Assembly: GCA_019828565.1 (NCBI GenBank) | Contig: JAHDYR010000035.1 | Coordinates: forward strand, 78,572-142,571 | Direction of reading: 5' to 3' | DNA length: 64,000 bases | Source of the DNA: Carpediemonas membranifera BICM | Lineage: Eukaryota > Protista > Fornicata | In this document: in pieces, positions 1,521 through 62,600 of the stretch | Numbering within the stretch: position 1 is the first letter of the stretch | How the letters are laid out: each line of letters opens with the position of its first letter | Notes under the pieces: model-generated | What the model saw: only the letters and a program-made list of their open reading frames with translations | What the model was told of the DNA's origin: nothing | The model's database searches: none | Program-made: the position numbers and the translations under genes

Positions 1521-2080
1521 CCACCAATGTTTTCAGCTAAGTGTTCTCACTTACAACAGGGGTGGATGAAGACCAACAGGCCTGTACTAGAATAGATAGA
1601 ACAGTGCCCCATCGAGCTCAAAAGGAGCGACTATGGCCCCTGTCCAACGAACCAGAAGGTTACATTCAGGGTGCACCGCCGGTTATGAGTGGGAGCTCCA
1701 TAGCCACAGGGACTAGAGAACGAACAATATGGAGCTTAGATTTACAGGGAAAGAGACGGAGAGCGCAGGGAAGGATGTCGGAGCATCGATGGAATGGAAT
1801 TTTCGCCAGCTCAGAGGGAAGGAAGGATCACCGGCGAACAACAGCAGGGGGCCCAGATAGAGGCCGCGAACACACTACGAATGGCGTAACAACGGCCAAA
1901 ATCCAGGGACGGTGTGGCATGAAAATGGCGATGCATTTTTAGAACCGCGCCATTTCGCCGCGAGCCCCAAAACAAACGATCAGGGAAAAATGAGAAAACA
2001 GGGAGGTCCGTGCGGGGACAGTACCTGCGCAGGGCCATGCTGACCGATTTTCGCGTCGATGCATTTGCCAAGCTTTTTTC

Positions 2081-5000
2081 ATGCAGGGAAAAGAGAACAA
2101 CCAGATGAGAGTGGAGATACCAGATAAGATCAGGGAATCCGCTCAAAAAGAGTGGGACACGATTAGAGAGCTACTAACGGACTACTTGATGGAAGAGAAG
2201 GGCACCAGAACGCTACTACTGCGTCGCGCAGAAGATTTTTCAGGGAGATCGTTCGGAGCTAGCTCCAGAAGCACGAAAAGAGGTGATACTGAATGCGAGG
2301 AGAGTGCTACGTGCCGCAGGGATCACCAACAACAGAGACGAGATCCTCCGTAACCCCAACGGAATCCTAGGGCTTCGAGACATCTTCTACGCAATGACAG
2401 AGGCCTTAGACCCGAGAGAGGACGAAGAACGGCGCCTAGCAGAGGCCAAGGAGAACGTCACCATCCAACCAGGGCACAGGGACATGAGCAAGTGGCCTTC
2501 CGACCACAAGATCGAAGAGGCCATCCTCCAACCGAGAGAACAGAGCAACATCGAGTGGGACAGTGAGAGAGACAGCATTGAGGGCAGAGAGACGGGCACA
2601 TTCACGCTCACATCAGGGTATGGAGATGAGAAAGCCGTCGAGGCCATCGCAGGAGAGGAGGTGTGGGACCCCACTAACCAGGGCCTGGTCACCAGGATCG
2701 CTATGGAGCAGGACGATGGCACCTACAAGGTCCTCATCGACATCAGAGATTGCAGAGCATGGCAGATCACCAGATTCATGGAGGAAGGCAGGGACATCCT
2801 CAGGTTGCAGGCCCCGGAGGCGCCGGCGGTCTGGCAGGCAGCTTGGTGCAAGACAGGAGTCAACACGGAGGGCAGAGGCGCAATAAGGGCACAAGGACAG
2901 GAGACGCCGCTCAGCAACAAGCTCGTCTTCTCTGACGTCAGGGCCAGGGTGATCAATGCCACCAGCCGCCGCCAAAAGAGGGACAGGGAAGAAGAGTCAG
3001 ACAACGAGAGCGGCGCACAGACCAGCCAAGAGGAAGACCCCAAACCCAAGGTCGTGTTGACACAAGCGGAAGGAGTGAGCGCCAGAAGGGGCCTTGGAGC
3101 CGAGCTTGATCAGCAGGAAGAAGAGAGCATACCCCGAGCATCAGAGGGAAGTGCATCAGCAGGGAGCCTACCGGAGGCATTGCAGAGTCAGGGTCAGAAG
3201 AAGCTCATCCTCGGTTCTATCGACTTCGAGTGTGGAGATCCTGGGAGTGAGAGGGCAGGGATCAGTGCGGTGCCGACAGAGGGGGGGCTCGTGCTAGTGG
3301 ACGTCGAGACGGGGGAGGTCGTTGGCCATGGCCACGGCCTCTTCTATGAGCCCAACCTGCCGGCCAACAAGGTGGACCAGAGCAGATACGCGACGTGGGC
3401 AGTGACGGGGATTCCCCCAGCGACGTTCGTGGAAGTGGACACAGGGGAGGTGCCGATGGACTATCAGCAGCACTTCAGCAGATTTAGAGAGTGGGCCACG
3501 CGGCTCGCAGCCAAGCTGAGAGACAGAGAGACCAGGGAGAACTGGAAGCTAGTCCTTCATGCCAAGGGCGTCCACATGGAGAAGTTCCTCCTGACGAACG
3601 AGGTCAACGGGCTCAACAGGGACACCAGGGACTTCTTTAGAATGAGGCTGGTGGACGATAGCGAGCTGGCCGACGCCATCGAGGAGCTCGCCCCGGATAA
3701 GGCAAGAGAGTACAGGGCAAACTACGAGATCAAGAACTACAGGGAGATGGCAGATATATGGGCCAGCCAATGGCAGCGCAGGGAGCTCCCGAAGGGGGCC
3801 TGTCCGTACCACAGGCACACTGCAGGGTGCTACCATTGTGCGCTGGCAGATGCAACGTTGTTCGCGGCGAAGGTGTGGGGCATGATGCTGAAGAAGATGA
3901 GCACGCCGGATCTGGAGAGTGCGATGGGTAACGCTTTCAACAGCATGTATGACACGGTCAGGGACGCAGGGATCAGAGACGATCTCTGCGGAGGCAACGG
4001 AGTAGCGTACAGGCGTGAGACCTTCAACATCTTCGGAGGGCACCCGTACGGCAACAGCAGGGACCTAAGCAGGGAAGAGGGCGACCGCATCCTAGTGGTC
4101 CCGGACAACGATCACTGCTATGGGATCGGCTTCGGATTCAGCGAGGTCATTAAGGGTATGAAGGGCATCTATTGGCCCCAACCACGGTCATGGAGAGAGG
4201 AGTCATCACGAGAGTCCCCATATGGTCGATCCATGAGAACACGACCCACATTCAGAGACTGATGTTGCAGGGAAGAGCTGGCAGGGCAGTTACTAGGGAC
4301 GAGGACATCGTCACCATCGCGATGGTCTACAGCTGGTGGCCCTCAAGGGAGGATACTGCTCATCAGGGTCAGCCGGGAGTCCACGACCTGGCAGAGAGCG
4401 TCAGACGCGAGGAGAAAGCCATAGCGAACGTCAGGGCACCCCCAGGGTATAGCGCAACCATCAGAGCGGCCTTCATCCGAGAGACTGGGGCTGTATCAGG
4501 GTCAGAGAGGCAGGGACGACACTGGGACGGATGAAGAAGGTGGGGACCCGTATGGTGTCCACGACCATCCCGCCAGAGGATAACTGCAAGATCACCCAGA
4601 GGCCGACGGTTAAGTACATCCCGTCAAGAGATGGAAAGGAGGAGAGACCCTACACGGTCGATTAGTACTGGCCGGCAACCCAGTCAGAGACGAGAGGAGC
4701 CAGTTGCTCGATCCAATAGCCCTTCCTCTCGACTGTTGCCGGAGAGAAGTGCTCGGCCTGCTCCTCGAGGAAGGAGCGGTACTCGTCGGTGTCGTCCTCT
4801 TCCGGGTCTCTGGCTGCCAGGAACGCGGTGATGTAGCCCGCTACCGTTCTCTTGGACTCATCTCTTCGCATGTGTGCAAGGCTGGGGTGGTTGCGGACGC
4901 GCTCGAAAACGTCGGGAAGGCGAGGGCTAGCAGGCGAACTGTGCCGTTCGGGCGCTGCGTGTATTTGAGAGCAGCCTGGTCCTCGGCGGCGAGCTGACTG

Positions 5001-5218
5001 TGGTGTACCGAGAAGGTCAACTTGCAGGTTGCTCTGGACTTGAGGAGGCGGAGCTCTGGCGCGACTGTGTATGGTACGACGAGGAAAAGTGATGCCGGCC
5101 AGGCTCTTGGGGGGAACGTAGTCGGGGTCCCTGGGGTCGACATCAACAACAGGGGATGGCAACCGAGAACCAGAGCGATGATGGCAGTGACAGTGGCAAC
5201 TCAACGGAGACCGATTAA
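2081..5218 (+). CDS. LINE A ORF1 (main frame 2283-4262; frameshifts near 2240 and 4172; interrupted by a DIRS fragment); DEDDh/Maelstrom-like nuclease domain at about 3201-3880
   Basis: Motifs SIDFEC...PTEGG...TGIPPATFV...AKGVHME...CPYHRH...HCALAD. The 4172-4534 frame aligns with LINE C ORF1 (GIGFGF...QGRAG...WWPSRE). The acidic C-terminus (stop at 5216-5218) resembles the LINE C ORF1 end. Confidence 0.8.
4670..5140 (-). mobile_element. Antisense fragment of a DIRS-type element (MT C-terminus plus YR N-terminus) inside LINE A ORF1
   Basis: RDESKRTVAGYITAFL...RKGYWIEQLAPLVSDW matches RNESSRRTAAGWVAKFL...RKGYWICEAAPLVSDW of ORF 21656-22474. The overlapping frame LFLVVP...VRLLALAFPT matches the pol C-termini of the DIRS elements in this window. 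Confidence 0.85.
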
Positions 5219-5283
5219 GCAGGGTAAAGTGGTATTCTTTGAGAGTGATAGTGACAGTTGTGAGTTCTTTTCTTTTAATCCAA

Positions 5284-5536
5284 CCCTGGCTCCCACCCAG
5301 GGTCCGGCATTAGCTGAAATGCACTGCCGGTGGGCTGTGGCGGCAGCCAAAGGGGGGGTCACGCCAATGCGCCCCCTCCTAAGTATCCCTGCCCGAAGGT
5401 AAGGATGGTCACCAGGGTAACCCATAGTTGGCCCGCCATGGGTAACCGGAGCCGGCACGAAGGCCCCGTGACGGGACAAGGGCAGATTGCAGGGAATTTC
5501 CGAAAATTCGCAGGATAGGAAAGACGGAGTACAAGA
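5284..5536 (+). promoter_or_regulatory. Conserved structured inter-ORF RNA element of LINE A (candidate IRES, ribozyme or promoter)
   Basis: Serial hairpins CCCTGG/CCAGGG, CCGGCA/TGCCGG, GGCTG/CAGCC, GGGGG/CCCCC. Homologous segments at 51468-51733 and 59275-59673 show compensatory changes. Confidence 0.65.
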
Positions 5537-8500
5537 ATGGAAACGATCAAGATAGCGAGCCTGAACACTGAGGGACACATCGGGAAGGGAAAGGACTTCA
5601 CGGCCTCAATGGCAACGGCTATAAGGATGAAACTGAGCGACACAGATGCAGTATGCATCCAAGAAACGTGGAGGACGGCGAATACGAGGGTACACAACTT
5701 CATAGACTTCGACTACGCAATGGCAGGGAAGGAAACAGAGGAGGAGCTAGCTATGGACAACGAGAGGAGGAAGAAAGAAGCCCAAAGCCAGCGCCGAATA
5801 GATGCCCAGCTGGGCATAGCAGGGAGCAGTAGCCGGACGCCCAGGACGAGGGGTACTAGAGAAGGAGTGGGCACAATCATCAACCCAAGAGCAAGAGGGA
5901 GCTGGGACGTAGGCATCACAGATAGCTTATCAGGGAGGATACAGGTGAGCATACTCAGAACCCATAGGGACATCCTGGTGATCAACGTGTATGGCCCACC
6001 GGTCGGCCACGGAAGGGAGGAGAAGGACGAGTTCAGGGACGGAATAAGGAGCATTATGGAGATGAAAGGAGAGATGGAAACAATCATCATAGGGGACTGG
6101 AACCTCGACCCCAAAAGGATAGCCACAATGGCAAGATGGAAGGACCTGATCAGGGACTATAAGCTGGGAGCAGTGATCCCCATGGAAGGTACCCTCACCA
6201 AGGGAACTACCACTCCGGACTTCGCGCTGGTATCATCAGGGATCAGAGGAGCAAGGATAGAAGTACTGGATGCTAGTCGACTCGGAGTCTGGGGGTCAGC
6301 CCACAACATGATAAGACTGGAATGGAGGGAACAACGGATCCAACGGACTACAAAGAGAGAGGAAGTCCTAGACATACCGGGCGTCAGAGTGTGGAACATG
6401 AGGAAGAAGGCTGAACGCACATCAGTCAGAAGACTGCACCGTTTTAAGAGCCTGGATGAGTGGGAGGAGGATATCAGGAAGGATATGGGCGAGCCGTCAG
6501 GTCACCCAGGCAGTGGAGACAGGGAAGAGGTCATCAAAGAAAAGGTGTGGTCGGAGCTCCGGCACACACCATGGACAGAAGAGGGAAACAAGACCAGAAG
6601 TGAGATCATGAAGCGTGAGCTACAGGCCTTCTGGGGAAAACGCAGGGAAGAGTGGATCCAGGACCTCAGCCGGAGCGCGAAGGAAGGATACAAAGCATCC
6701 AGGTCCATGGTGGAAGCAGCGGTAAGAAGATGGTGGTGTGAAAACCAGTTCAAGGGCATGCCAGAGAGCATACTGAAGGACGGGAAGATTACCACCAACA
6801 AGGAAGAAATAGGTAAGATCCTCCTACAACAGTATGCAGGAGTGAGCAGGGGCAGGGAACCGGAGTGGAAGGATAGAGGCAATGGAAAGAGGGAGGACGA
6901 ATTTAAGGAGAGAGAAATACGAGAAGCGATCAGAAGGACAAAGAGGGACACTGCACCGGGACCGGACCACACTACAGGGGACATGCTCAGGGACACAGAT
7001 GACCAGGGGATCGCTCAGATAACTAGGCTCATGAACAGGGTATACAGGGAGGGCAAGATCCCGACAACATGGAAGTATGCTACAGTCTCGGCCATCCACA
7101 AGACAGGGAAGCCCAGAGTGAAGCCGGAGTCGTACAGACCCATCTCGCTAACACCACTACTGTATAGGGTGTATGGTAGGCTCCTGAAGAGAAGATTAGA
7201 AGCAGCCACATGGCACCTCATCCCAAGAGAGCAAGCAGGGTTCCAATCGGATAAGGACGTAATACAACAGATACAATACATCGTGCAGAGACACCAGGAA
7301 GGGGGGGAGACCACGTCGATCTTCCTAGACATAGAGAAAGCCTATGACACCGTCCCGAGGGACATCCTCATGGATAAGCTGCAGGGAATGGGGGTCGAAG
7401 ACCACCTCATCAGGGCAATACAGAGTACACTAGAAGAGACATGGATCTCGGTGAAGGGGGCAGGGTCATGGGAGAGAACAAACAGGGGAGTGAAGCAAGG
7501 ATGTGTCCTAGCGCCGACCCTGTTCGTTTTGTTCATGGCAAACTGGCCTCACCTGGTCAGGAAGAAGCATCAGGGACAAGAGTACGATATCAGGGAACCA
7601 CCAACGGAGTTACCAAGAGCCCGGGACACGCTGCCGGCCACCCTAACCATGTTCGTGGACGATACAGCGGTCACAGGGGAGACACCGGAAAAGAGCAAGA
7701 TAGTGGCGAACCTAGTCATAGAAGTTATCAAGGAGCACCTCATGAGGGCAAATGCACAAAAGAGTGAGATGATCAGTGTAGACAGGGCAGCAGTGGCGAG
7801 AGTGGGGGAGTTACCCTAATGGCAAAAGAGGAAGCTAAGTACCTAGGTCTCTGGATAGCCAGCGGAAAAGACCCACTGGCAGCCTGTATCAGAAAGAAGC
7901 GGGAGCAGAGCGAAAGGTACAAGAAGCTAGTGAGAAGAGTGGGATGGACCAGAGGCAACATGCCGGCGCTAGCCAGCAGGCTCCTCCTCGAAGTTTACAT
8001 ATGGCCGAGGATAATGTTTGGAGTGGAGGTGTGGGGCTACGCAGCAGGGGGGAACAAGATATGGACGGATTGGCAGGGCATCATGGCCGGAACAGGCCCA
8101 GGTGGGGGCTCGGTCATGCGCATCTTGAACGGATGGATGGACCTGCAAGCCCACCTGGAGATGCTAGCAGTCAAGAGGATCGTGACAAGCAGGGGCCAGG
8201 ATATACCAATCAGAGACAGGGTCTGGAAGGAGGGATCGATTATGTGGAAAGCCAGGGACTCAGTGAACGCACTCCTCAGAGGAACAAGAGAGGGAGCAAC
8301 GAATGCAGGGAAGATAGACTTTGGTAGGGAGATGGTAAGAATGAACTGGACCAGGAGGTGCAAGAGCAAGACAGCGGTGGGGCTCATGGAAGTCCTAGGA
8401 CCCAAACGTATGGGAAAGTGCATGGCGGGGAAACCGGCCATAAGTAGGAAGACAGGGAAGTGGCAGTCAAGGGCAGAGTGGAAAAGGATAGTGTCGGTGG

Positions 8501-8986
8501 CAGCGAATGTCAGCCCGTCTCCATCATCAGCGGAAAGGGGAGAAGGCCCAGAGCGAGCGCTGGCGGACCTGGCGATGGGTGAGGAACTCAAACACAAGAT
8601 ACAAAGGAGGTGCCCCCTGTGCACAAAGGAGAGCGAGATAGAGTTACTGTGGCAAATAGCGAGAGAGCAGCCAAACCAAGCCAGGAAGCAGGCACTAATC
8701 AGGGGAGTGGGTAAGGGGTCAGCCGCTGGGATCGGCGGCCCACATTATGTGTGAGTGCCCAGAGGTTGAAAGAGGAGATGACTGGGAAAAGATATGGAAG
8801 ACAGCTAAGGAGAGGACCAGGGAATTGCAAGTCAGAAGAGGCCCGAATGGGAGGTGGTATGAGAAGAGGCCAATCTTAGAGGTGCAACAACTAGTGTTAA
8901 CAGGGTCGGAAGAGATATGGGAAGGACTGCGAGCTGGGCTGAGAGCCCTGGCAAAGGTCTATGATAGCTATAGAATAGATGGATAG
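5537..8986 (+). CDS. LINE A ORF2: AP endonuclease, reverse transcriptase and C-terminal CCHC (frameshifts in G-runs near 7805 and 8702)
   Basis: APE: SLNTEG, CIQET, INVYGP, GDWN, PDF, SAH. RT: APGPD, YRPISL, LDIEKAYD, GVKQG, FVDD, KYLG. C-terminal CPLC...HIMCEC. Copy B is in frame at both shift sites. Confidence 0.95.
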
Positions 8987-9760
8987 ATAAGGAACACCAC
9001 ATCCAGAAAGGGGGCAGGGAAGCATAGACTCTGGGATCAAGGGGAGACCCCCCATGTTTCCCAGGGAGAGGGCAGGGCCAGGGACAGAGGAAATCCATCA
9101 ATTGGATGGTTGCACCACTCGCGGTGAACCTAAGGAAACTGCAGGGACTGAGCATGGGATACGGGGGGACATGACGTCCCCGCCGCCCTTGTGAACGATA
9201 GAGGGACGCTGGGAAGTGTAGCACAAGAGAACTATCATAAGGGGTACTAGGCCTTGCAGATCTAGAGTCTGTGTTAGCCCTAACCCACGCCGCCTAACAG
9301 GGGGTAGATGAGAGGGACTTAGTTGCTTTCCCCGCCCACGGGTAGGCCACTTAACAGGGTCGTGGGGGCACTGAACAGGGAATCTGGAAAGAGGAGAGGG
9401 TGCCATGCTTGAACGACCCCGTAGGGACTGCAGGGAATCAGGGAGTGCTATAGAGAAGGTCTTGCAGGACAAACCTGCCTGTGGAAGCACCGAGGACAGA
9501 CCCCCAGGCTCCCTGGAAGCTGCCGGGTTTACAGGGAGACAGGAAAGCGCTCAGCGCACGGAGATGGCGAAGGCCTATGGGGGGAAGTGAAATCGGGAGT
9601 GAGCGGAAGCAGTAGCACCGAATCGCTCGTTGGACGCAGCTGACAAGTTCAATCGCAGGGAGGAGGCAGCGCCCCGGGGAACTCGGCTCCAGTAATAAGG
9701 GAGATCAGCCTAAGTAACCGGGGCCCGATACCAGGCACCATAAATTTTCTTTCTTTCTTT

Positions 9761-9779
9761 CTCTAGGGGCCTCCACAGT
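9761..9779 (+). repeat. Right target-site duplication of LINE A
   Basis: Identical to 1502-1520. Confidence 0.95.
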
Positions 9780-12611: not shown

Positions 12612-13458
12612 ATGGTTTGATGTGTTCGGCTGTCTTTCATCTGTGAAATGAGAACAGGCGTGAGTGTCATGGACACAGATGGCCCGGACAGCGTTGCCTC
12701 CGTCTTGGCATTTGTTGAGGACAACACAGCTGTAAACGACAATAAGATGAAACAGAAGTAGCAAGCAATGTTTAATAACGTATGAACAGTCCTTTTGATG
12801 TTGTTTAGTGATTTTTGTGCATTAACGACCGAGAACAGTGGAGTGCAACGCAGATGTTGGTTATTGATGGTAGATGGCGCGCTTTTGACGACAGCTGGTT
12901 GCTTTTGCAGTATAAAGAACCGCATAGCTGCCACTAGTTCCTTCCAATAATGCTTTCCCGCCATTTTGAGGTTGGAATGAAATTCCAAGCACCGTGCACT
13001 TTATGTAATTGCCCAATATCAACGCCACCCCCGCCCCCAGCGCCTCCACGCCCCACGCCAACGCCACCTCCGCCCCCCTGGCGCTCAGTTCAGGAGATGT
13101 CCGGTCGATAAGCCATAAACTGCACGGATCCACAAACGTGGATTGGCCTGAACGACAGCGCTGAGGCCCAAACAGGTGGTGAGACATTAAAAAGACTCAT
13201 TTGCAATCCATTTACTCAGTCCTCACCCTCTTACCACTTGTCTCGATCTCTGAATCATCCTCTATTGTGTTGTCCGCATGCTTCTGCTTTTCGGGCGACT
13301 CTACATGAGTCACCCTTGCAGTGGACGTGGTTGTGGAGCACCCCCAGTGTCTCCACGTCCGCCACCAGCGCCAGATCCGCCACCATGCCCTACATCAGCA
13401 CATTTGTGTATTTACTTTGTAAATTACTTTGTAAATTTGTCCTATTGCTATTGAAGCA

Positions 13459-16023
13459 ATGCGTTTCGAGAACTGGGAAGTCGTCATCACCTATGGGGCG
13501 GACAGTTCTCTTGGATCTATCATCACCGCTGTCTTAGACGAGTTTCTGCTCCGAAACCGCGACAAATCGTTTCGTTTAGACAGCAAGGAGCAGTGCTTGC
13601 GCATTCTCCGAGATTTCCTGACGTCATGTCCACTGAGGGTGACACATAGTGATGCTACGTTACGTAGTGCAGTCGTTAATGCTGATTGGAGCGCATTGAT
13701 GAGGAATCACAGCACTGCTCATGTGACTGTTACGCGAGTCGACAACGAGGCGAAGACGAAGAGCCTATACACGGCCATGGCAATTATCTGTGCCGTCGAG
13801 TTAGGGAAGAATCGCTACGACCGACTCCGCCATGCATTTGTTTCAATGGCCTCCGACATGGGAGTTCGCCTTGGAATTCACACTCCACCGGTGGTAGACA
13901 GTCTCCAGAATCTTGGGTATGACCTGCTGTCCATCCCAGCCATACGATCTGTTATATCAGACCCAACACTGATCGAGGACGTCAACGCGTTCACTCCTGA
14001 GCAGCCCGATGTCTCTGGGCGTGATGGGGTGTCTAACCAAGAGCTTCAATGTCAAGCAGGAGCCGGTTTCACGCGTAGCGTGGAAGTCGCGGAGGCTTTT
14101 TACGTCCTATATGACCCAACCACCCACACCGACCTGCAAGAGACTCTCGATGAACACGACTGCCTCTTCGCTCACCACTTCGAGAAGATATCGGGGGAGT
14201 CACGGCTATACATTTCGCATGATGATCCATCCAAGCTGCCGGAGATTCAGAGATTATGCCGGAACATGGGCATCATTCCGCGTGGAACAAAGAAATCTCA
14301 CCGGATGGTGATCAGCGCTCTGTCCTATGACCCTGTCGCCCAGATTAAGTTCATGCTGAAGTTCCCCGACCGAGTTCAGCGCGATATCAAGTCAAGCAAG
14401 TTCGTTCAATCCGTCACTATTAACCCGGAGAGCCGACAGGAGGCTTATGGTCTTGAGATGCTCCTATGGTTTGATGGATATCGGGCCGACTGTACGGCGG
14501 TCAAATATCGCATAATTGATCGCGAGGGAGCAGCCCTACCACAGAAGATTACCCCACCCATGACGCTTCTTACATTTCAGGGCACAGAGAAGCTCATTCC
14601 TTCGTTCTTTGATGATGTACAGCGGCTAATGAACAAGCTCATTGGTATCCCCTTCGCATGTGGTGACAGTTCGTTGCTCCCACGCAGCCGTGTTGTCATC
14701 AGCCTGCTCGGGATCTGCGGCGATCACAAAGCGTTGCAGATTGTTAGTGGCGTCAAGCGGGGACGATACTACCGCTCTCCATTCTCCTCCCTACACATGG
14801 GAAAGGTCGCAAGCGACCCGTTTGCCAATCGTTGCGATCGCTGGACAATCGCAGATAGCATCCGTCTTCGTGACGCTGGTGGCGTGAAAGACATGACACG
14901 GTTTGGGTCCCGCGATGGTCACCGAGATGTCTGCTGTCTGACCTATGCCAACGAGATAGATGGCCCACTTCACGTGCTCACAAAGTACGCTGATGTCACG
15001 TTCATTCCACCTGTCATGCATGTGAGTCACTATCTTATGAAGGACTTCTGGACGCTGCTTGGCCTTGTCAAGGTTCAACACGCTGGTCAGAACGTGCACA
15101 CACTTGAGCAGATTGAAAAGCTGTTCACGCGGACAACTGGCTGCAACGAGCAGAGCTGGAACAGACGAAAGCTCGCGACACTAGTCAACGAGCACCTTGA
15201 GGAGTTTGACCAGTCACTCCAGCCCTTCATACTCCTTACAGCCAAGTTACAGGCGTTGTATTACTCCTCTGACCACGTGACACACCAGACAATCGCTTTC
15301 CATCACGCGGCGTCCTTTTCTACGTTCATCATGTTCCATGTCTTGACGTTGTTCTATGACCTTCCATCGAGTCGCTCCTCGGTTGCTACGACGCTCAATG
15401 ATGGTCTCAGACTGACTTACTCTCCCAAGTTTACCGGCTCGCTATATCTGAATGCAGTGGTGTCAGTTCTGCCCAAGGTTCACTCGAAACTGCGGCTTCC
15501 GATGTTCTATTTGCTTGAGGAGTACTTCGAACGTGATTTCCTCATCAATGCCCAGTTGCGAGTGGACAAGCATCGATCTTGGGTTCTCGGCTTCCTGGCT
15601 CAGAAGACAATGGTCGGTCGTGTCCTTGCTCACTACACCCGCCGTGGCTCATCGAGAAAGCATGGTATGGTGTTGCCGATTGCAAGGCAGTGTAAGTCTG
15701 TCACATTCTGCTCGTGTCTATTTGATGCCGACCGGTGTGCCGCCTGGAGAAATCGTCTATTAACTAAGGTACCCAACTGGGATAGGGAGGCGAGCCAACA
15801 GTCGCTGAATGCGCTGTTTAGTGGATGGGTCAAGGGTATCTGTGAGGAGCCGGAGGAGATCCGGGAACTCATCACTGTTGACGAGACAGCCAAGACGATT
15901 TGTGTAAGGACGGCGGACAGTGGTCTGGATGAGACTCTCTGCATCTGCAATCTGTGCAACAGTGAGCAGCGAGCGGAGGAGCTGATGAGGAGGACTGGGC
16001 ACAATCTTCGCCCGAGAAGATAG
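13459..16023 (+). CDS. Putative DDE transposase of RAG1/Transib/Chapaev type
   Basis: Intact 854-aa ORF with LWFDG, ICGDHKAL, IPPVMH and LEEYFE in the order and approximate spacing of the RAG1/Transib D, D, H and E motifs. No TIRs found. Confidence 0.5.
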   Translation: MRFENWEVVITYGADSSLGSIITAVLDEFLLRNRDKSFRLDSKEQCLRILRDFLTSCPLRVTHSDATLRSAVVNADWSALMRNHSTAHVTVTRVDNEAKTKSLYTAMAIICAVELGKNRYDRLRHAFVSMASDMGVRLGIHTPPVVDSLQNLGYDLLSIPAIRSVISDPTLIEDVNAFTPEQPDVSGRDGVSNQELQCQAGAGFTRSVEVAEAFYVLYDPTTHTDLQETLDEHDCLFAHHFEKISGESRLYISHDDPSKLPEIQRLCRNMGIIPRGTKKSHRMVISALSYDPVAQIKFMLKFPDRVQRDIKSSKFVQSVTINPESRQEAYGLEMLLWFDGYRADCTAVKYRIIDREGAALPQKITPPMTLLTFQGTEKLIPSFFDDVQRLMNKLIGIPFACGDSSLLPRSRVVISLLGICGDHKALQIVSGVKRGRYYRSPFSSLHMGKVASDPFANRCDRWTIADSIRLRDAGGVKDMTRFGSRDGHRDVCCLTYANEIDGPLHVLTKYADVTFIPPVMHVSHYLMKDFWTLLGLVKVQHAGQNVHTLEQIEKLFTRTTGCNEQSWNRRKLATLVNEHLEEFDQSLQPFILLTAKLQALYYSSDHVTHQTIAFHHAASFSTFIMFHVLTLFYDLPSSRSSVATTLNDGLRLTYSPKFTGSLYLNAVVSVLPKVHSKLRLPMFYLLEEYFERDFLINAQLRVDKHRSWVLGFLAQKTMVGRVLAHYTRRGSSRKHGMVLPIARQCKSVTFCSCLFDADRCAAWRNRLLTKVPNWDREASQQSLNALFSGWVKGICEEPEEIRELITVDETAKTICVRTADSGLDETLCICNLCNSEQRAEELMRRTGHNLRPRR

Positions 16024-17043: not shown

Positions 17044-18771
17044 CACAAACAGTTCTCATGGACGCACGAGGCCCAGTCAGCCTTTGATACCATCATATCC
17101 CGCCTCACGTCTGCCCCGACTCTTGTACACTATAACCCGAGAGCCAAGCTGAAACTCATCACTGACGCGGCCGACTACGGTGTGGGAGGAGTCCTGCTTC
17201 AGGACGACAAACCTCTGATGTACCTGTCCAAAGCACTCACCGGCGCCCAAAAGCGTTGGCCCACGATCGAGAAAGAGATGTATGCGGTAGTTTATTGCCT
17301 GTCCAAAGCCGAACGCTATCTCCGCTGGGCACACTTCACAATTGCCACTGACCACCACAATCTCACTCGAATGCACCAAAGTGCTAACGCCAAGGTGGCA
17401 AGATGGAGCCTCCTCCTTGAACAGTTCAGCTATGACGTGATCCATGTACCAGGTATCGCAAACGGTGCCGCTGATGGACTATCCCGAGTGTGCACAGCCT
17501 TGACCAACTCCGAGGAGAACCCACACGCAGCCTCTATCAAGGAGCACCATACACTCGGCGGCCTACATCTCTCTGTGAACAGAACAGTACAGCAGCTGCG
17601 CGCCAATGGCCACGCCTGGCCCAGCATGAGACAAGCTGTCGCAGATGTCATATCACACTGCCCCGTCTGCCAGAAGACTGTCCCGACCAGACCGATGTCG
17701 TCATTTGACCTGACCCTCCAGGCACCATTCCCTATGGATACACTCTGCATTGATACGATGGGACCCTACCCCATCGACGGCGAGTTCCAACACATCCTAG
17801 TTATGGTAGACTTGTTCTCCAGATACGTCGAGATGACCCCTATCCGATCGAAAACAGCCGAGGAAGCAGCCTCGTGCGTGGTTAATCATTGGTTCCTGCG
17901 CCACGGAGTTCCAAGGAGGATTATCACAGACAGCGGGTCTCAGTTTAAGAACAACACCTTCGCCAGGCTTTGCGACCGCCATGCCGTCGATCTTCATTTC
18001 ACCGCACCATACCATCACCAGAGCAATGGTATTGTGGAGAGAGTTAACCGCGAGATCAACGCTCATATGATTGCGAGGAGATTGGAGATCAAGCATCTTG
18101 ATCGCTGGTCCCAGCACATCCCTTTCGTGCAAGCAATACTCAATTCCGCGAGACACGCGTCACTTGGCGTGTCCCCGAACGAGATTGTCTTCGGCCGCGA
18201 GCTTGTCCTAGGAAACCCTGCTTCTGATACACCTCTCAACCTGAGACGAGCAGCCGAAGCCGCCATAGCCACCGCTAAGTCGAAACAGGCTGAACGTGTA
18301 CAAGCCGTGCTGTCCCAAGCCACTGGACGCATCACCCCCACTCTGCCTGAGTACATCCTACTGAGCTATCCATCCTTTAGACCAACCAAGACAGTAGCAC
18401 GGTACCGTGGCCCACTACGCGTCACCGGGTATGAGTGCAATGAGTTCAACACCCCTGCAACTCTCATTGTAGAAGACCTGAACACCCACAAGTCACTGCG
18501 AGTCCACACCTCCAGATGCCATCCTTTTGAGCGAGGCTCGTTGACACTGAGGGAGCTGAAGGCCCTAGCCGCGACCGACAGCGACGAGTTCATAGTTTCA
18601 GAGGTCTCAGCCCACAGAAAGACCAAGTCTGGCTATGAGTTTGAAGTGCAATGGGCAGGCTTTGAGCCTGAAGAGGCCTCATGGCTCCCATGGTCCGAGG
18701 TTAGATCCCTCGAGGCTATCGACAAGTACTTCACTCAGCATCCTGAGCTAGAAGGAAAAATTAAACGCTAA
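17044..18771 (+). mobile_element. Ty3/Gypsy pol fragment: RNase H, integrase, chromodomain (no LTRs seen)
   Basis: Frame open from 17044 (FSWTHEAQSAF...LITDAADYGVGG, EKEMYA, TDHHNL, ADGLSR). IN HHCC and D-D-E (CIDT, ITDSG, VERVN), then RGPL, and chromo FIVSEVSAHR...FEVQWAGF...SWLP. Confidence 0.92.
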
Positions 18772-19501: not shown

Positions 19502-19661
19502 CTGGCGTTACATCGCGCTGACAGGTTACCTCGGGTAACGGGCCGTGAGCGGAGGGCAATGAGATCGCCTCGCTCCGGCATGGTGATGCGCCGACCAGGC
19601 GAGCCGCGCAGTTTATGCGGGCAGAATGGTAGAAAATTCGGAACATCCAGATCCGACGGCA
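19502..19661 (+). repeat. Split direct repeat A1
   Basis: Identical to 23183-23342. Confidence 0.95.
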
Positions 19662-20230
19662 ACGAGGCTCAATAACCTAGAAGCCACAATCGCTACCATC
19701 TCGCAACAGCTTGCAAAGCTTAATCCGCCTCCTCCGCCGCCCGAGACCGAGCCGCCGAAGGAATCCCAAATTGATTTCTTCCCTGAACAAGATGAAGCGG
19801 ATATTGACCAAACACTGGCAGAAATGGATGCATACGGCGAGCTTCCGACAAAGAGACCACTTAAGGCGGAAGCAAAGTGGCTTCGCCGCGTGATGGTGAT
19901 CGTCAACGCCCTCGACGACGAGCCGCTCAAAGCAAGACTCCTGGTGGAACTCCAAGCACGCCGTACCCTTCTGGACCTCAAGGACGACAACTGGTCGGAC
20001 GCAACCTGCGAACTGTTTCTCGACTTGTTCAACACGTCCCAGACCAAAACCCCCCGTGCCATCTCCTACTGCGCAGCCAAAGCCAGAGCCAAGGGTAAGA
20101 GAAAGGACCAGCCCCCCGAACAAAGGGGGGGTTTCACAAGAAGCACAAGAAGTAGCCCTTGCCACAGATGTTCAGTTCCCGTCAATGAACAAAAAGTGGC
20201 CGGTGTGGGCAAGACTCGGTGCCTCCCCCG
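19626..20230 (+). CDS. YR element 1 gag-like region (frame stays open far beyond; end is nominal)
   Basis: N-terminal part of ORF 19626-22202; resembles the gag-like ORFs at 23639 and 27226 (E..WL...L.L.R..LL.IKD). Confidence 0.65.
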
Positions 20231-22202: not shown

Positions 22203-22961
22203 CCGAGGGTACCACGTCGGGCCCACAGTCGATACACAGGAAAGGCTACTGGATTTGCGAGGCCGCCCCACTCGTGTCTGACTGGCGCCCCCCGACCGCT
22301 GCCAAGCAGATAATCGCCGCCGCCCGGAACGTCGCCTCTGTAGAAGGCCTGACCGGGGGCGCGAAGCCTGTCACGTCCGCGAGAGTCCGCAGGGTCATAG
22401 ACAGACGTCGGAAGTCACCCCAAGCCTTCCAGGCCGCCCTCTTTTTCTGCTCTCTGCTTTATCACCGTGAGTAGAGGCGCAGAGATCTTTGGGCTCAGAC
22501 GAAGAGACGTCGAGTTCGACGCTGATGGCAATGCCCTCCTTCTGTTCGCGAGAACTAAGACTGCCACAGGCGTCCGCAAGCTGGTACCAAACCAATCGTG
22601 GGCCCGCTTTAACCCAGCAAGGGCCCTGAAGGCATGGGTCCCCACGGCAACGCGCCGCGACGACGACCTCATCTGGCGGGCGATCACCTCAACCGGTGGT
22701 ATTTCACTATCGAAGCCGCTACCGGCGTCAACCCTCCGCCACTGGATCCACCAGGCGTACGGCACCGACATTTCGTGGCACTCATTCCGCAAGGGCGCCA
22801 CCACGGAGTTGGCGGTAGCCCACACGAGTACCGAAGTCCTCCTGTCCATGGGGACGTGGGCCTCCACGAAAAGCATGCTGAGATATATGGGCAACGGGGT
22901 CCGCACACACCCGGGGGTCCAGGGACACCTGGCCTCCATCCTTCTCCAACCACCACTTTAA
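21656..22961 (+). CDS. YR element 1 tyrosine recombinase (frameshift in a T-run near 22445)
   Basis: SRGAEI, TKT, HSFRKGA, GTW and RY give the R-K-HxxR-W-Y catalytic set. Confidence 0.9.
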
Positions 22962-23526: not shown

Positions 23527-23597
23527 TGCATCAGCCGGGATTCGAACCCGGGTCCACACGATGGCAACGTGCGATGATACCCCTACACCACTGATGC
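23527..23597 (-). tRNA. tRNA-Gly (GCC)
   Basis: Reverse complement GCATCAGTGGTGTAGGGGTATCATCGCACGTTGCCATCGTGTGGACCCGGGTTCGAATCCCGGCTGATGCA: 7-bp acceptor stem, anticodon loop TTGCCAT, T-loop TTCGAAT, followed by GATTTT. Confidence 0.97.
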
Positions 23598-29765: not shown

Positions 29766-29978
29766 GCGAGCATGCGATGTTCGGTGGCCTCGCCCGGGCC
29801 ACACGGCAAGACTACGCGAGGACCCTTGCGGGCTTCCTGGCCTACGCGTCCACACTCCCCCCGGTCGAGGCAGCCAAGCGCTGGGCTGACGAACAGGCCC
29901 AAACCGCTGGAAAGGACCGCATCATGGCCAAGGCCGGGGTGATAGTCAGGTTTGCCCACCGCGTGCTTCCAGACACCT

Positions 29979-30060
29979 TGTCGGTTGAAATCATTTACAG
30001 TAAACCGCAGCGGGGTAAAAGTGGTCAAAACTGGACGGAGCAGTTTATAGACCGGTGACA
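29979..30060 (-). repeat. 3' LTR (82 bp)
   Basis: Identical to 34256-34337. Confidence 0.97.
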
Positions 30061-30118
30061 CTACCTCCCTTTTTGATGAGAAAACCCCCAACCTGCAAGG
30101 AACGGGGGAAAAAGATGG

Positions 30119-34234: not shown

Positions 34235-34255
34235 CAGCACAGCTAATACTAGTAT

Positions 34256-49949: not shown

Positions 49950-52900
49950 AGCACACGGCGGGGTGCTATCACTGCGCACTGGCGGACAGCACACTGTTCG
50001 CAATCAGAGTTCTAGCACTGTTCAGAGGCACCAACGGCATCGGTGAGTTAGAGGACGCCCTCAGACTGCTGCAGCCAGCCATTGAGGAAGAGGTCAGAGC
50101 AGCCAGAGAAAGCAGTGACATCGTAGCAGGGCTGGGGTTCCAGCCGAGGCACACAGCGTTCCAGGAGTTTGGCCCCCACCCAGCGTTCAGAGAGATCAGA
50201 GACGGGCACCAGGGCAACAGGTTCCTCGTAGTGCCAGACAGAGAACACAGGTTCGGCATTGGCTTCGGATTTGCAGAGGTAGCGATGGGGATGAAGGGCC
50301 TGCTCCTATCCCCTGACGCCTTCACTGACAGAGACAACAGAGTCACTAGGAACCCTATCTGGACACTGGAAGAGGAGCTAGACAACCCAGAGCAACTCAG
50401 AGCGGTCCAGGGCCGAGCCGGCCTTGGAGCGCACAACGAAGAGAACATGGTCACACTGTCACAGCTCGTCAACTGGTGGCCCAGCAGAGAGCGCATCGCC
50501 CGGCAAGAGACCACGACAGAGAGGTGGGTCACCAAGTTGACAGAGAGGCCAGACGGTCGGTCGACCAGGAAGTCAGGCGCCCTACTGGCAGAGAGATCGG
50601 ACATCCCACCCACAGAGAAGCCATACACCTGGCCGACAGAGAGGCCAGACGTCCGGCTGACTATGAGGTCAGACGCCCCATCGCCAGAGAAGCTGACCAA
50701 CCCACCGAAAGAGACATCAGACACCCTGACGACAGAGAGGCTGGGCGCCTCATCGACAGAGAAATCAGACGTCCTGAAATCTATGAACGCGACACGGAGC
50801 TCGAACGTCTGGAAGCCAGGGCCAACAGAGCAGAACAGGACGGTCTCCGGATCAGACCCGACTTCGAAGAGGCAGAGAGGCGCCAGCGGGAGAGAAACGA
50901 GTGGTTTAGAGAACATCTTGGAACAGCCAGAGACAACCGCAGAGGCAACCACTCCTCAGCAGCCGGCAAGCGAGGCAGCCAAGGCAGAGACGACCTATCC
51001 GAGTCAGGAAAGAGGAGCAGACACAGTGATGACACCGCTGGGACGGTAAGAAGCAGACTACCAGACCAGCAGGACGCCGAGAAACAGAGGCTCCTACTTC
51101 AACTGGCAGAGGCACAGCGAGAAATCTCAGCCCTCAAGGCCGCCCGGCAGAGACCCGCAGACCTGGCAGGCACTGAACCCGACCCCCTTGTCAGACCACC
51201 GATTGAGATGGTCAAGAACAGAGACGCCGCGGTAGTGCCCCGTCGCAGGAACAAGAGCAGGAGAACCAGGACCACCAGACAGATGGACCCCATGGAGATG
51301 ATGACACAGTTCATGTCCTTCATGGCCAACATGCAAGGTGGTCAGGCCCGCGACCCTGAACCGTATGATGATGCCAGTGAAAGTGAGGTCTCGGAGGAGT
51401 AAGTGGATCAGAGATAAAGCAGTATTCTTTCAGAAACTAGTGTATCAGACTTTCTTTCTTTATATAACCCTGGCTCCCACCCAGGGCCTGGCATTAGCCC
51501 ACGGGCACTGCCAGTAGGTTGCAGGCGGCAGCCAAAGGGGGTCACGCCACTGCGCCCCCTCCTAAGTATCCATGCCCGAGGGCGAATCGGTCACCAAGAA
51601 GCACGGAGGCTGGCCCGCCAAGGGTTACCAAGACCGGCATCGAGGCCCCTTGACGGGACAGAGACACAGTGAACCCTTAGCCCCTGCAGAAATTCTCAGA
51701 ATTCGCAGGATAAGGATCAGAGCATAGTACAACATGGAAACGTTCAAGATCTTAAGCCTGAACACTCAGGGGCACATAGGACGAGGAAAGGACTTCACGG
51801 CATCAATAGCAACAGCAATTCAAACCAAACTCAGAGACATTGAAGCGGTTTGTATACAAGAGACATGGAGAACAGCAAACACAAGAGTCCACAGCTTCAT
51901 AGACTTCCAGTACGCTTTAGCAGGCAGAGAAACAGAGGAAACACTAGCAACAACGAACGAAAAGCGGAAAAGAGAGACCAGGTGCCAGCATCGCGTGAAC
52001 AGACAACTGGGAATCACAGGTGACGACCCCCTACACCCAAGTGGCACGGGACCAGAGAAGGCATCGGCACAATCGTAAGCCCGCATGCCAGAGCAACATG
52101 GGATGTCGGCATCACTGACAGCCTGTCAGGAAGAGTGCAGGCGAGTATTATGAGGACGAGCAGAGACATCATGGTAATCACAGTGTATGCACCCACTTCA
52201 GATAAAGGGAAGACAGTGAAAGATCAGTTCAGAGACAACATCCAAGAGATACTGGACATGAAAGGGGACATGGAAGCAATCATCATTGGGGACTGGAACA
52301 TGGCCCCAGGGCCGGCACACGGAACCACCAGGTGGAAGGATGTTATGGACAAACACAAACTCAGAGCAATCATACCAGAGAGGGGCACATTATCCAGTGG
52401 CAACACCACACCGGACTTCGCAATGGTCTCAGAGGGAATCAGGAAAGCAGAGATTCAAGTGGTCAGCTCGACAGTGCTGGGAGTATGGGGGTCGGCCCAC
52501 GAAGGGGTCAAGCTTGCCTGGGAAAAACCCCGATACAGAGCCAACAGAGACGATGACAGTGGCCTGGAAATGCCAGGAGTGCACACATGGAATATGAAAG
52601 GGAGGGAGGGCCACACAACAATCAAGGAGCTAGACAGAAACGGATCGATAGATCAGTGGGAGGAGACAATCAGAGCCTGCCTGGGGGAACCAGCCGGGGA
52701 GAAGAGAGCCAAGCCACGAGAGCAGATAGTACAAGACAGCGCATGGGCCGACCTCCATGAAACAGAATGGTCAGAAGCAGGCAACAAGGTGAGGACGAGA
52801 CTAATGAACAGCGAACTGAAGAAGTACTGGGACAAACGCAGAGAAGAGTGGATAGCCGACCTCAGCAAGAGCACAAGAGAGGGATACAAAGCATCGAGAT

Positions 52901-58600: not shown

Positions 58601-59100
58601 GAGCCCGGGCCCCCTCCAACTAAGAGCTGTGCCCCCCCCCATACCCCCCAACCCATCAGCCAAGACCCGCCAGGTCAGACAGGTGGACCAAGAGGACCTG
58701 CAGCCCAAAAAGAGCACGACAGGAGGACACCGACCTGGGCAGAGGCATAGCGGCCCTGCTGGACCAAGCCATGGCCCGGCGAGAAGCAGAGGTCAGACAA
58801 CAGCTGGAAGAAGCTGCAGCCAGAACCATCAACGAGCTCAAGGCCAAAAAGCCAGGAGCTGGAGGAAGAACGGGAAGCCCGGAGAGCAGCCCAAGCTGCG
58901 TTGGACGAGATGCGGAAGGACCTCAGGAAGACAACGGAGAAGTGCTCGTCTCTAACCGAAGAGAACGAGGACTTACTCAGCCGCGCGGCCCGACTCTCGG
59001 CAACCAACGAAGCCCCTCAGCTTCACCCCTAGCAGCCAAGATGGATAACTTCAGGTCTGACCTGAGAAGGAAGAGAGACGAGGAGAAGGAAGGAGAGTAG
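55630..59100 (+). pseudogene. LINE D ORF1 (frameshifted); DEDDh/Maelstrom-like domain at about 56830-57530
   Basis: MVDFEE...ICEGA...HGCPPATFVDVTTG (ORF 56773-57192); AKGVEAE (56963-57349); ACPYHKH...HCALAD (57349-57636). Confidence 0.75.
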
Positions 59101-59274
59101 AAACAATCATAAGTAAGAGGTGCAGAGGGTAGTGTGATATAAGTCTGAGCTAAAAGTACATATATGAACCAGCATGTATGGCCAGGCTGTGACTAGTAGG
59201 GCCTTAAAGTCCAAATGGACACCGGCGAACCATTCCGGCGGGAGCAAAAATGCAACACATTCTTTTTCAACAAA

Positions 59275-59673
59275 CCCCTGTGCTCCCACAGGGGCCGGGG
59301 GCAGGGTTACCAAAAGGTAAAAAGAGCCCTGCCTGTCCGGCAGGCTGTAAATCCAGCCTTGGGAGGGGCAACAACCACTGTCGCTCCCACCTAAGCTCGT
59401 TAGGTAATGGTTCTGCCATGCGGCGAGGAAGGAAGCTAAGCGGAGACCGGCAGCAATGCCGACAAGCATCGTGAGGCCCCGACTGTGAAAGGGAATGGTA
59501 TGCCCTAGGCCGGGAACTAAGGGAATACAGGCACAAGCCTGCCCAAAAGGAAACGACTGCTCGGTTAGAGGCCTCAGCAACCCACCAAAAGGTACGCCCA
59601 AAAAGGGAATGTCTACAAAGAGCAGATTAGTGCGCGCAGGGTAACTCCCGCAGTTTATGTCAGAACAACCTGA
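59275..59673 (+). promoter_or_regulatory. Structured inter-ORF RNA element of LINE D
   Basis: CCCCTGTG/CACAGGGG, CCGG...CCGG, AGGCTG/CAGCCT, GGGAG/CTCCC then CCTAAG: same hairpin order as in A and C. Confidence 0.5.
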
Positions 59674-62600
59674 ATGAGAATAATATCGCTAAACAGCGAA
59701 GGGCACCTAGCGGGCGCAAACGATTACAGCGGATCCATAGCTTTATCCATCCGCAAGAGGATAAGGACTGATGCGATCCTCCTCCAGGAAACCAAGCGGT
59801 ACGGTAATACCACCATCCCTTGCTGGGTAGATCTCCAGTACGCCTGTGCAGGAGAGGTCAAGCCATTAGAGGCAACGCGCAAGCGACCCACAAAGGGACT
59901 GGCCACACTGATTAGCCCGCAATCCAAAGCGGAATGGGACGTAGGCGTGTCCGACGGGACGAACCCACGAATCCAAGTAAGCATCCTCAAAGCATCGAGG
60001 GCCACGGCAGTCATCAATATCTACGCTCCCGATAGTGGATGTGCACGACCCGAGATTGAGGGAGTTCGACCGGATGCTAGAGCAAACCGTCGCGAACTAT
60101 GAGGGGTGTGACATCATCATCATCGGGGACTGGAACAGGAGGCCAGGGAAACTCAGGCAAGCAACTGCGATGACCCTCCAGCGATGGAACCTCACCCCAA
60201 TAGCACCAACTGCACTGACGTACGGGACTAACTCCCGAACGTCCACAATAGACTATGCAGCGGTAACAGGGGGTATCCAAAACCCGGTTGTTAGGGTAAT
60301 AGACAAGACCACAATCGGGCACTGGGGGTCGGCACACAAAAGCCATAGAGCTCACCTGGGATAGCAACCCGACAGGGAAACCAGAGATATCAAAGAGACT
60401 GGAAATCCCACGGATCGATACGTGGCTGGTCAAACCCAGGAGAACAGGGCCCAAGCTAGAAGAGTGGCCACCACTAGACAGCAAAAATACCAGTGGACGA
60501 GATGGAGACTCTCATAAGGAAATGGTTGTCCACCGGGTTTGCTACCTCCAGAAGGCACCCATTCGCTGTAGAAAACCAGGAACGTATCCCTAGTGAGGTA
60601 TGGGAACGGCTGGCCAAAGCCTCCACCTGGAGCAAAAACCGCCGCCAAAGATATCAAAAAGTCCCTCAACGGAGCACTGAGCAGATCATGGAGGACCTTC
60701 CAACATGACTGGAATGAGCAGGTTGAGGTTGGATCCCGTGATGGGTACAAAACGACAAAAAGGATCCTCGCAAACCAAGTGTTCCGCTTCTGGAACGAGA
60801 AGCAGCACGCCGGTCTCCCGGTGATGCTGAAGGCTGGAAACAAGATTCTAGCAAGGCAGAGGGAGATTGCAGACTCCCTCCAGGAGCAGTACGCGAAGGT
60901 AAGCTCCGGGAAGGAACCCACCTGGGAACCCACCTGGGAAACCGAGCCGGAAACGGACATGGAGGACCATCCGCCATCGCTTGAAGAAGTGACAGCGGCG
61001 GTCAAGTCCATAAGGAAGTCCTCGGCCGGAGGCCCGGACGGGATTATTGGAGATTGTCTGAGGGACCTCCCCCGAGTCAGCGTACGAGGCAATCACAGTC
61101 CTGCTCGCGAAAGTATACGACAGCGGGACCATGCCAACCACATGGAAGTATGCAGCGGTGTCGCCTATCCACAAGGTTGGGAAGGACAAGCTCACGCCCA
61201 GCTCGTACAGACCGATCTCCCCTCACCCCCTCCCTATACAGAGCCTACGGGAGGATACTGAAATGGCGCCTCAGGCCGACGGTGGAGAAGTTCATCCCCA
61301 GAGAGCAAGTTGGGTTCATGAAAGGGAAAACTGTAGTGGATCACATAGCCCTCCTAGCCCAACTCCACCAGTCCGGAAACCGTACCAGCGTCCTACTTGA
61401 CATAGCAAAAGCATATGATACGGTCCCAAGGGACCTGCTGGTGAACAAGTTGACGCTCATGGGGGTACACCCAAGACTGACGAGGGCCATCCGAAATACA
61501 CTTACAGAAACGTACATCTCGGTACGAGGGGCAAGCACATGGTCCAGAACAAACATGGGGGTCAAGCAAGGATGTGTGGTGGCCCCCACTCTGTTCATTC
61601 TCTTCACAGCTAACTGGCTAAGCCAGGCGGCACTGTACCTCCGGCATAGAGAGATCCCGGACCCCTGCCTCCCTCCAACGGACGATAGGCCCAAAAACTG
61701 CCCTCATTGCAATGTTTGTAGATGATACAAGCATCTCAGCCGAGACCCCGCAGCTCGCCGAAGAAGGCACAGACGCAGTGGTCAGGGTAATTGAAGCCCA
61801 TGGACTCCAGACCAGCCCAGGCAAAAGTGTGGTGATAAGTACCGACGTAACTGCAGCGGTCAGCATCCAAGGAACTCCCACACTGGCGTCAGACTCAGCA
61901 AGGTATCTGGGACTCTGGCTAGCCAGCGGGAAGAATCCGTTGGCAGCATGCATCAAAAATGAAGACGTCACAATCCCGGAAATACCTAGCCCTGGCAAGG
62001 AGAGCAGGGTGGACCAAAGGATCCACCCCGGCCGCCACCTCGGAATCCATCCTCAGAACCTTCCTCTGGCCCAAGATCGAGTTCGGGATCGAGATCTGGG
62101 GCCAAGCGCTCAGGGGAAGAGCCATCTGGAACAACTGGCGCGGCCTAATGGCAGGCACAGGACCAGGGGGAGGAGGAGCCGCCCGTGTACTAATGGGATG
62201 GATGTGCTGGGAGGCAGATATGGGGGCAGAGAGCGGGGAGGCTCTATGAGTCTGCGCACGACCCGGACCGTCCGACCCCCCTAGGGAATCTGGACTGGGC
62301 GACAGCGGAGAGAGGGATCGGTCTTACATCGCCTCTACCAATGGCGACGGAGCGTCCTCCAGGGCACACAGGGAGGAGATTCCCGCCAGGGAAAGAGCAA
62401 AGAGGGGAGGCTGGACCCCTCACAGCAGAAGAACTACTGCACACCGGGAGCCGAACGGCCAAAGGGGTGGCAACAGTACTAGCCCCGGAAGTCATCCTCA
62501 GCATGCAGCAAGGGAAGAGACCCAAGAAACCAGGAATGATCAAGGGGTGAGATGATAACCAGACGGGAAGTCAAGAGAGTAATCATGACTGCATCCAACA

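Follow-up and report, generated by a model that had tools for sequence, protein, structure and literature searches.

How ORF2 is translated in bicistronic LINEs is a long-open question, and for mouse L1 an IRES between the two ORFs has reportedly been claimed. Mammalian L1 and silkworm SART1, like the elements described here, have bicistronic non-LTR RNAs in which ORF2 is the downstream cistron. According to PMC5972666 and PMC2881922, their ORF2 is reached by termination-reinitiation, with an overlapping stop and start in SART1 and a 63-nt spacer in L1; moreover, the RNA structure of SART1 lies 3' of the start, whereas that of the present spacer lies 5'. In Giardia, mRNA leaders measure 0 to 14 nt and longer ones cut recruitment, according to PMC3388326. 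The giardiavirus IRES is described in PMC2757703 as AUG-centred, with a pseudoknot and stem-loops, and the EMCV and CrPV IRESs as inactive in Giardia. These facts need not apply to Carpediemonas.

The window, by which we mean the whole stretch of 64,000 nt that was analysed, is eukaryotic DNA dense in retroelements. It carries three distantly related families of APE-RT LINEs, termed A, C and D, each with a spacer between ORF1 and ORF2. As in APE-type non-LTR elements, we observed an ORF1, an ORF2 with APE and RT, a target-site duplication, a simple-repeat 3' tail and 5'-truncated copies. Element A is a single 8.2-kb insertion, in which one 19-bp target-site duplication (1502-1520 and 9761-9779) brackets ORF1, spacer and ORF2. 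A minus-strand copy of A, termed B, is 99.4% identical to it and is without the spacer because its 5' end is truncated 59 nt inside ORF2. Identity to the A ORF2 was 56-67% for C; for D it was 28-34% across the endonuclease, rising to 53-61% across the RT core. Among proteins labelled as those of the free-living fornicate Carpediemonas membranifera, P0001 matched the C ORF2 and the start of P0002 was identical (100%) to the N-terminus of the A ORF2, while P0010 represents a fourth LINE family with its ORF2 AUG at the endonuclease N-terminus. The close matches in the protein searches came from C. membranifera only (2 of 8, 6 of 6 and 1 of 1).

Within ORF1 of A, positions 4637-5170 hold an inverted, foreign coding fragment on the minus strand, about 30% identical to 21804-22322 and 26128-26307 of the window. 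Another family-A ORF1, P0015, diverges from A across this region, and the fragment apparently replaces the ORF1 C-terminus present in P0015. The source-database name of P0015, "Splicing factor U2AF", is likely wrong, since the protein is a LINE ORF1 product without a Pfam match. Instead of poly(A), the 3' ends of A and B (9742-9762; 43319-43335, minus strand) carry ATAAA and then (TTTC)n, and near 63917 D may have a comparable end. The target-site duplication of A at 1502-1520 resembles the sequence at the truncated 5' end of C (around 49866), with TCTAGGG...CCTCCA common to both; the B site is unlike them. These likenesses suggest a possible target-site preference.

Other elements of the window include three RT elements (19587-22474, 27480-30058 and 36639-38838), some with RNase H, whose long ORFs overlap in two frames and whose second overlapping ORF gave no Pfam match; we presume that they may be DIRS-like. 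Among such elements lies a tRNA gene (23527-23597, minus strand), with a second T-arm-like hairpin at 23656-23692; two repeats adjoin this gene, one of 160 bp (19502/23183) and one of 49 bp (23139/23440). A Gypsy-like LTR element with identical 83-bp repeats occupies 29978-34337 on the minus strand, and a chromodomain integrase lies at 17044-18771. An ORF of 862 codons (13435-16023) had no Pfam match and is preceded by a U/A-rich tandem repeat (13412-13437).

The first-pass annotation had reported that the noncoding spacer is more conserved between A and C than the adjacent end of ORF1. That baseline is confounded, because A 4637-5170 is foreign and P0015 differs there, but the conclusion holds when ORF2 serves as the baseline. 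Between A and C, 91 of 103 sites were identical in the 5' domain (5284-5388), 61 of 91 in the middle part (5389-5480) and 34 of 56 in the 3' part (5481-5536), giving 186 of 250 for the entire spacer. For ORF2, the corresponding values were 35 of 109 at four-fold sites, 318 of 441 (72%) at codon position 1 and 336 of 441 (76%) at position 2. In conservation, the 5' domain surpassed the four-fold sites (Fisher p 1e-17) and, with a Fisher p of 0.001, even the coding positions within the endonuclease region. By this comparison, the spacer is under purifying selection.

A covariance model built from A and C only matched D 59260-59395 with an E value of 1.6e-6, the next match being at 0.1. Since this model retrieved the D 5' domain, the D spacer is homologous to those of A and C, as had been proposed when it was singled out as a third copy. 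The three-sequence covariance model detected no further spacer copy in the window. The view of the spacer as a conserved, structured, cis-acting RNA is supported, and its features are collected in Table 1.

Table 1. Coordinates of the spacer features in LINEs A, C and D (positions in the window).
Feature	Position	Strand	Remarks
LINE A, full length	1521..9760	+	ORF1, spacer, APE-RT ORF2, ~1 kb 3' UTR, ATAAA+(TTTC)n tail
A ORF1 stop	5216..5218	+	65 nt before H1, as in C; 318 nt before ORF2 AUG
A linker	5219..5283	+	TAAAG and GTATTCTTT blocks common to C
A UUCUUUU tract	5265-5276	+	within linker, directly 5' of H1
A H1, C-rich loop	5284..5302	+	GCUCCCAC present in 3/3 copies; alternative pairing to 5' strand of H4 possible
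A H2, internal loop	5304..5330	+	one two-sided change in C
A H3	5333..5348	+	two one-sided G-U-compatible changes in C
A H4	5352-5377	+	two two-sided changes in D
A CCUAAG, invariant	5378-5383	+	directly after H4
A H5	5390..5401	+	4-bp stem, 4-nt loop; new here
A H6	5428..5479	+	long interrupted helix; GGCCCC in 3' strand; new here
A terminal hairpin, CGCAGGRUA motif, purine-rich linker, ORF2 AUG	5488..5539	+	motif 5509-5517; AUG 5537-5539
A ORF2	5537..8754	+	AP-endonuclease-like domain and reverse transcriptase; frameshift near 7770-7819
C spacer	51400..51736	+	ORF1 stop 51400-51402; U tract 51451-51461
C helices H1; H2; H3; H4	51468-51486; 51488-51514; 51517-51533; 51536-51560	+	
C CCUAAG; H5; H6; terminal hairpin; motif; AUG	51561-51566; 51573-51584; 51610-51661; 51683-51709; 51704; 51734	+	
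D spacer	59098..59676	+	ORF1 stop 59098-59100; U tract 59260-59268
D helices H1; extended H2; H3; H4	59276-59293; 59295-59340; 59342-59359; 59360-59389	+	
D CCUAAG; H5; AGGCCCC; motif; AUG	59390-59395; 59414-59425; 59474-59480; 59635; 59674	+	extra hairpins

Separate local folds of A, C and D yielded H1 to H4 in the same order, with core helix probabilities of 0.84-0.99, so that the hairpin order proposed earlier emerged independently from each copy. The compensatory change in H2 of C (C-G to U-A) and the G-U variant in H3 were both confirmed, and H1 to H4, CCTAAG and GGCCCC lie where the first-pass annotation had placed them. Its description of the D stems as different in sequence was not borne out: in the mapped cores, H1, H2 and H3 of D are those of A, and two-sided changes are confined to two pairs of H4. 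H5, recognised by motif in all three copies, is absent from the minimum-energy folds of C and D. H6 shows two two-sided changes relative to C, and its counterpart in D is uncertain. A kissing loop had also been suggested between GGCG in the H3 loop and CGCC in the H4 loop. Five base pairs of it are possible in A and four in C, where the bases are invariant, but D allows only 1 bp, which rules it out as a general interaction. A pairing common to A, C and D joins the H1 loop to the 5' strand of H4 and competes with H4; at -11.2, -9.7 and -10.5 kcal/mol, compared to -15.8, -12.9 and -12.8 kcal/mol for H4, it is 2-5 kcal/mol weaker.

In A, C and D alike, the UUUC tract that immediately precedes H1 proved the closest plus-strand look-alike of the (TTTC)n tail of A and B. 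The U tract of D (59259-59270) can pair with 59486-59497 in a 12-bp duplex just past GGCCCC-GAC that encloses H1-H6; at the same site, A and C form about 5 bp at most. A short stretch of D (59430-59449), absent from A and C and without an Rfam 5S match, resembles the internal-promoter boxes of 5S rRNA. The UCCCA loop of H1 (5289-5298; 51473-51482) likewise resembles the C-rich loop bound by KH-domain (PCBP) proteins in enterovirus cloverleaves.

The folding energy of the whole spacer was ordinary in all three copies (z -0.12, -0.81 and -1.57). For the 5' domain, z was -5.3 in D, the only clearly significant value, -1.9 in A and -1.1 in C. The reverse complements folded equally well or better (z -3.1, -0.9 and -4.9 for the 5' domains, and -3.8 for the 3' half of C). 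The plus strand is favoured because five variable pairs are G-U on that strand and mismatches on the minus strand.

Aligning A with C leaves every one of the 46 proposed pairs intact, three of them with two-sided and four with one-sided changes; this structure was chosen on the tested sequences themselves, and 64 of 500 shuffles did as well. Other tests were less prone to this bias. When the A fold was scored in C, 1 of 30 pairs was broken (null mean 4.4, p 0.03; p 0.07 with a stricter null), and 1 of 29 was broken when the C fold was scored in A (p 0.03-0.04). Cross-scoring of H6 between A and C broke 1 of 16 pairs (p 0.03-0.06), and extension of the A fold to 5407 broke 4 of 38 (p 0.13-0.21). 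Across A, C and D there are five two-sided pair changes, three between A and C and two in H4 of D. Thus, the earlier claim of a covarying RNA stands insofar as two-sided changes exist, and falls short of significance by strict standards (p 0.03-0.2); with two or three sequences in the alignment, covariation is suggestive only.

We then considered the position of the ORF2 start. The ORF1 stop lies 318 (A), 331 (C) and 573 nt (D) upstream of the ORF2 AUG, with 4, 1 and 12 upstream AUGs in between, respectively. The 5' side is variable, with 65, 65 and 175 nt from the ORF1 stop to H1, whereas the 3' side is near-fixed, with 28, 30 and 39 nt from CGCAGGRUA to the AUG. All three occurrences of CGCAGGRUA in the window lie just before an ORF2 AUG; the motif was picked post hoc and has an expectation of 1.2 per 128 kb. 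In the P0010 family, seen in a contig of sequencing run X1, a purine-rich run led by AGGAAA precedes the AUG by 19 nt, and its equivalent in A does so by 20 nt. The A spacer was not spanned by contigs from runs X1 to X3, a result that counts neither for nor against it. Ahead of the AUG, 6 (A), 2 (C) and 0 (D) in-frame codons are open. The frame of the single upstream AUG of C ends 6 nt before ORF2, uORFs of A end 18 nt before it, and a uORF of D ends in an AUGA overlap; reinitiation after a short uORF is a possible route on this arrangement. Two further candidates around the AUG were rejected. Closure of the U tract onto the AUG region gave no specific helix (ranks 26/291, 47/294 and 20/320), and the hairpins 3' of the AUG are in different register in C and D and weak in A.

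Our best reading, with a probability of roughly 0.45, is that the spacer is an AUG-directed internal ribosome entry element for ORF2. Internal entry is suggested by a spacing that is near-fixed to the AUG and variable to the ORF1 stop, with stable helices and upstream AUGs in between, as well as by the short leaders of Giardia and the AUG-centred giardiavirus IRES. In keeping with the functional class of IRESs, the spacer has conserved structure 5' of the start as well as upstream AUGs, a barrier to scanning. Plain termination-reinitiation is unlikely, because a gap of 318-573 nt with upstream AUGs stands against an overlap or a 63-nt spacer; the stop-start distances depart in the same way from the class of TURBS, SART1 and L1.

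Beyond a spacer that is conserved and predicted to fold, we infer each step as follows. The spacer RNA would fold into at least six helices within the full-length two-gene LINE RNA. LINE insertion requires a full-length RNA template, and since one 19-bp duplication surrounds A, such an RNA served as its insertion template. The same transcript would yield ORF1 by cap-dependent translation. Host proteins or the small subunit would attach to the 5' domain with its UUUC tract, C-rich H1 loop, H2 to H4 and CCUAAG; H5, H6 and the terminal hairpin would hand the subunit to an AUG located 20-30 nt beyond the final helix, so that the upstream AUGs in the spacer would be bypassed rather than scanned through. 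Speculatively, the H1 loop may act as a switch by pairing with the 5' strand of H4. That this is a new virus-like class of intergenic IRES carried by LINEs, 250-400 nt long, multi-helix and with a conformational switch, is a rather doubtful proposal that we make with greater reserve. Such an IRES would have been conserved among families that are close to saturation at neutral sites, and would let a bicistronic retrotransposon make its reverse transcriptase in a fornicate with ribosomes that hardly scan.

Unlikely, in our estimate, is a platform for the retrotransposition particle, on which ORF2p or ORF1p would bind the structure in cis and select full-length RNA or complete integration. Strong conservation of both sequence and structure and the invariant single-stranded motifs would fit such a platform, and the R2 protein binds a 5' pseudoknot and the 3' UTR (PMC6765202). 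The RT-loading role suggested in the first-pass annotation is conceivable. However, binding leaves the near-fixed AUG spacing unexplained and does not account for translation of ORF2 over 318-573 nt with upstream AUGs. Moreover, a search in A and D for motifs or pairings common to the spacer and the 3' end gave chance levels (P 0.27-0.99).

Somewhat less likely still is a processing or subgenomic boundary, at which the TAAAG/UUUC linker would end an ORF1-only RNA or mark an internal start, the structure being either a switch for read-through or the 5' leader that protects a separate ORF2 RNA. The (TTTC)n look-alikes directly 5' of H1 are consistent with a boundary, as are the equal length (65 nt) and common blocks of the linker in A and C, the alternative H1-loop/H4 pairing available in all three copies, and a U/A-rich stretch that also precedes an unnamed host-like ORF. 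No ORF2-only insertion starting at H1 was found in the window, however: A, C and D retain ORF1, and B begins 59 nt inside ORF2, not at H1. An ORF2 RNA would still require cap-independent or non-scanning initiation past the upstream AUGs.

A ribozyme of an undescribed self-cleaving or branching class that releases an ORF2 RNA appears improbable. Compact helices with invariant unpaired CCUAAG and CUCC would suit it, and PMC6765202 describes ribozymes as common in non-LTR elements; there, those of LINEs and R2 sit at the 5' end. The three spacers had no Rfam match at the gathering score, with 0, 5 and 3 weak ones at E<=10, so that the scan proposed in the first-pass annotation returned no family at or near threshold. 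Among descriptors of our own, HDV gave one loose match in the A linker and none in C or D, hammerhead and pistol none in A, C or D, and twister two motif matches in D only. This agrees with the earlier remark that the HDV and hammerhead consensus is lacking, and with no descriptor match common to the three copies it speaks against assigning the proposed self-cleaving ribozyme to a known class. A circularly permuted HDV or pistol fold, considered by eye, was rejected as the P2 partner is absent. Efficient self-cleavage fits poorly because A is a single insertion spanning ORF1, spacer and ORF2; cleavage would cut the insertion template, yet all three spacer-bearing copies are joined to ORF1.

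We consider very improbable a structured, mostly retained spliceosomal intron whose splicing would bring the ORF1 stop near the ORF2 AUG for reinitiation. GCAG/G (the bar marking the splice point) does occur 24-35 nt before the AUG in all three copies, and the ORF1 stop of C and D coincides with GTAAG or is closely followed by it, A having GTAAAG, but the CTRAY branch point is present in none of the three, the pyrimidine tract sits at the end opposite to the one expected and the window holds no intron-less copy; a splice consensus for Carpediemonas was not found in the literature. Just as remote is conservation due to a concealed coding frame or to DNA motifs of a promoter or enhancer, with incidental hairpins: the AATT boxes in the terminal hairpins of A and C have look-alikes close to LTRs and other gene starts of the window and folding energy favours neither strand, but D is without AATT boxes, the five two-sided changes and the D z of -5.3 require pairing, and the coding frame named earlier as an alternative was not found, none being open in all of A, C and D, whose spacer lengths differ modulo 3. 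Internal entry and these rivals are not all mutually exclusive, by analogy with the R2 5' RNA, which has several roles.

Relatives of the spacer were also sought elsewhere. Protein-guided scans, whose patterns were tailored to A and C, covered 138 viral and 599 metagenome stretches and confirmed none of either. Exact-match DNA patterns gave 7 and 0 viral, 45 metagenome and 24 prokaryote loci, and with the three-sequence model all 76 were at chance (best E 0.43 for 52 loci; E 0.04 and 10 bits for 24). As the protein scans were narrow and the DNA patterns exact-match only, these results argue weakly for restriction to the C. membranifera genome. Literature listings and the starts of abstracts contained no description of the spacer element or of Carpediemonas LINEs, and Carpediemonas translation factors were not found in them. 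The strings "transpos" and "retrotranspos" are absent from the accessible text of PMC8516963 (main text and 10 supplements, one scanned file aside). Structured cis-elements in non-LTR RNAs are known already; the fold and internal position described here are uncatalogued.

Compared to known systems, the spacer resembles the dicistrovirus IGR IRES (type VI: CrPV, TSV and HalV; defining features as given in bioRxiv 10.1101/2020.10.20.347120) in that a structured stretch of a few hundred bases separates the two ORFs of one RNA and is predicted to drive the second. In contrast to that IRES, it has no common PKI-like pseudoknot and no evidence of PKII/PKIII nesting, and the AUG at which its ORF2 starts is conserved and follows the last motif by 20-39 nt; the Rfam model of that IRES did not match the spacer either. 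Around the start, we counted 7 H-type pseudoknot candidates in A, 0 in C and 2 in D, none of them common. A non-AUG, Met-tRNA-independent start has no counterpart at sequence level, since in four families (A, C, D and P0010) the ORF2 AUG is the start of the endonuclease domain. Thus, the earlier suggestion of an intergenic IRES by dicistrovirus logic survives in internal entry; the lack of a common start pseudoknot, the conserved AUG and an almost closed frame before it indicate that the spacer is not a dicistrovirus IGR IRES.

The giardiavirus IRES is similar in its fornicate host, its AUG start, its several stem-loops and an AUG beside a stem-loop. Unlike the spacer, it occupies the 5' end of its viral RNA and requires 264 nt of coding region and pseudoknots, according to PMC2757703. 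The R2 and L1Tc 5' RNAs are likewise conserved structured RNAs 5' of an RT ORF with a proposed help in translation and protein binding, through an HDV-like ribozyme, IRES-like activity and a pseudoknot bound by protein; they are placed at the element 5' end with an HDV fold in PMC6765202, whereas the spacer is internal and fails the HDV test. In the L1 and SART1 cases, reinitiation proceeds without a conserved upstream fold, and the structure of the present spacer makes internal entry directly testable. The spacer could supply a cap-independent element for metamonads. Whatever its function, it is an uncatalogued structured RNA under selection stronger than that on the endonuclease-coding region of the LINE itself.
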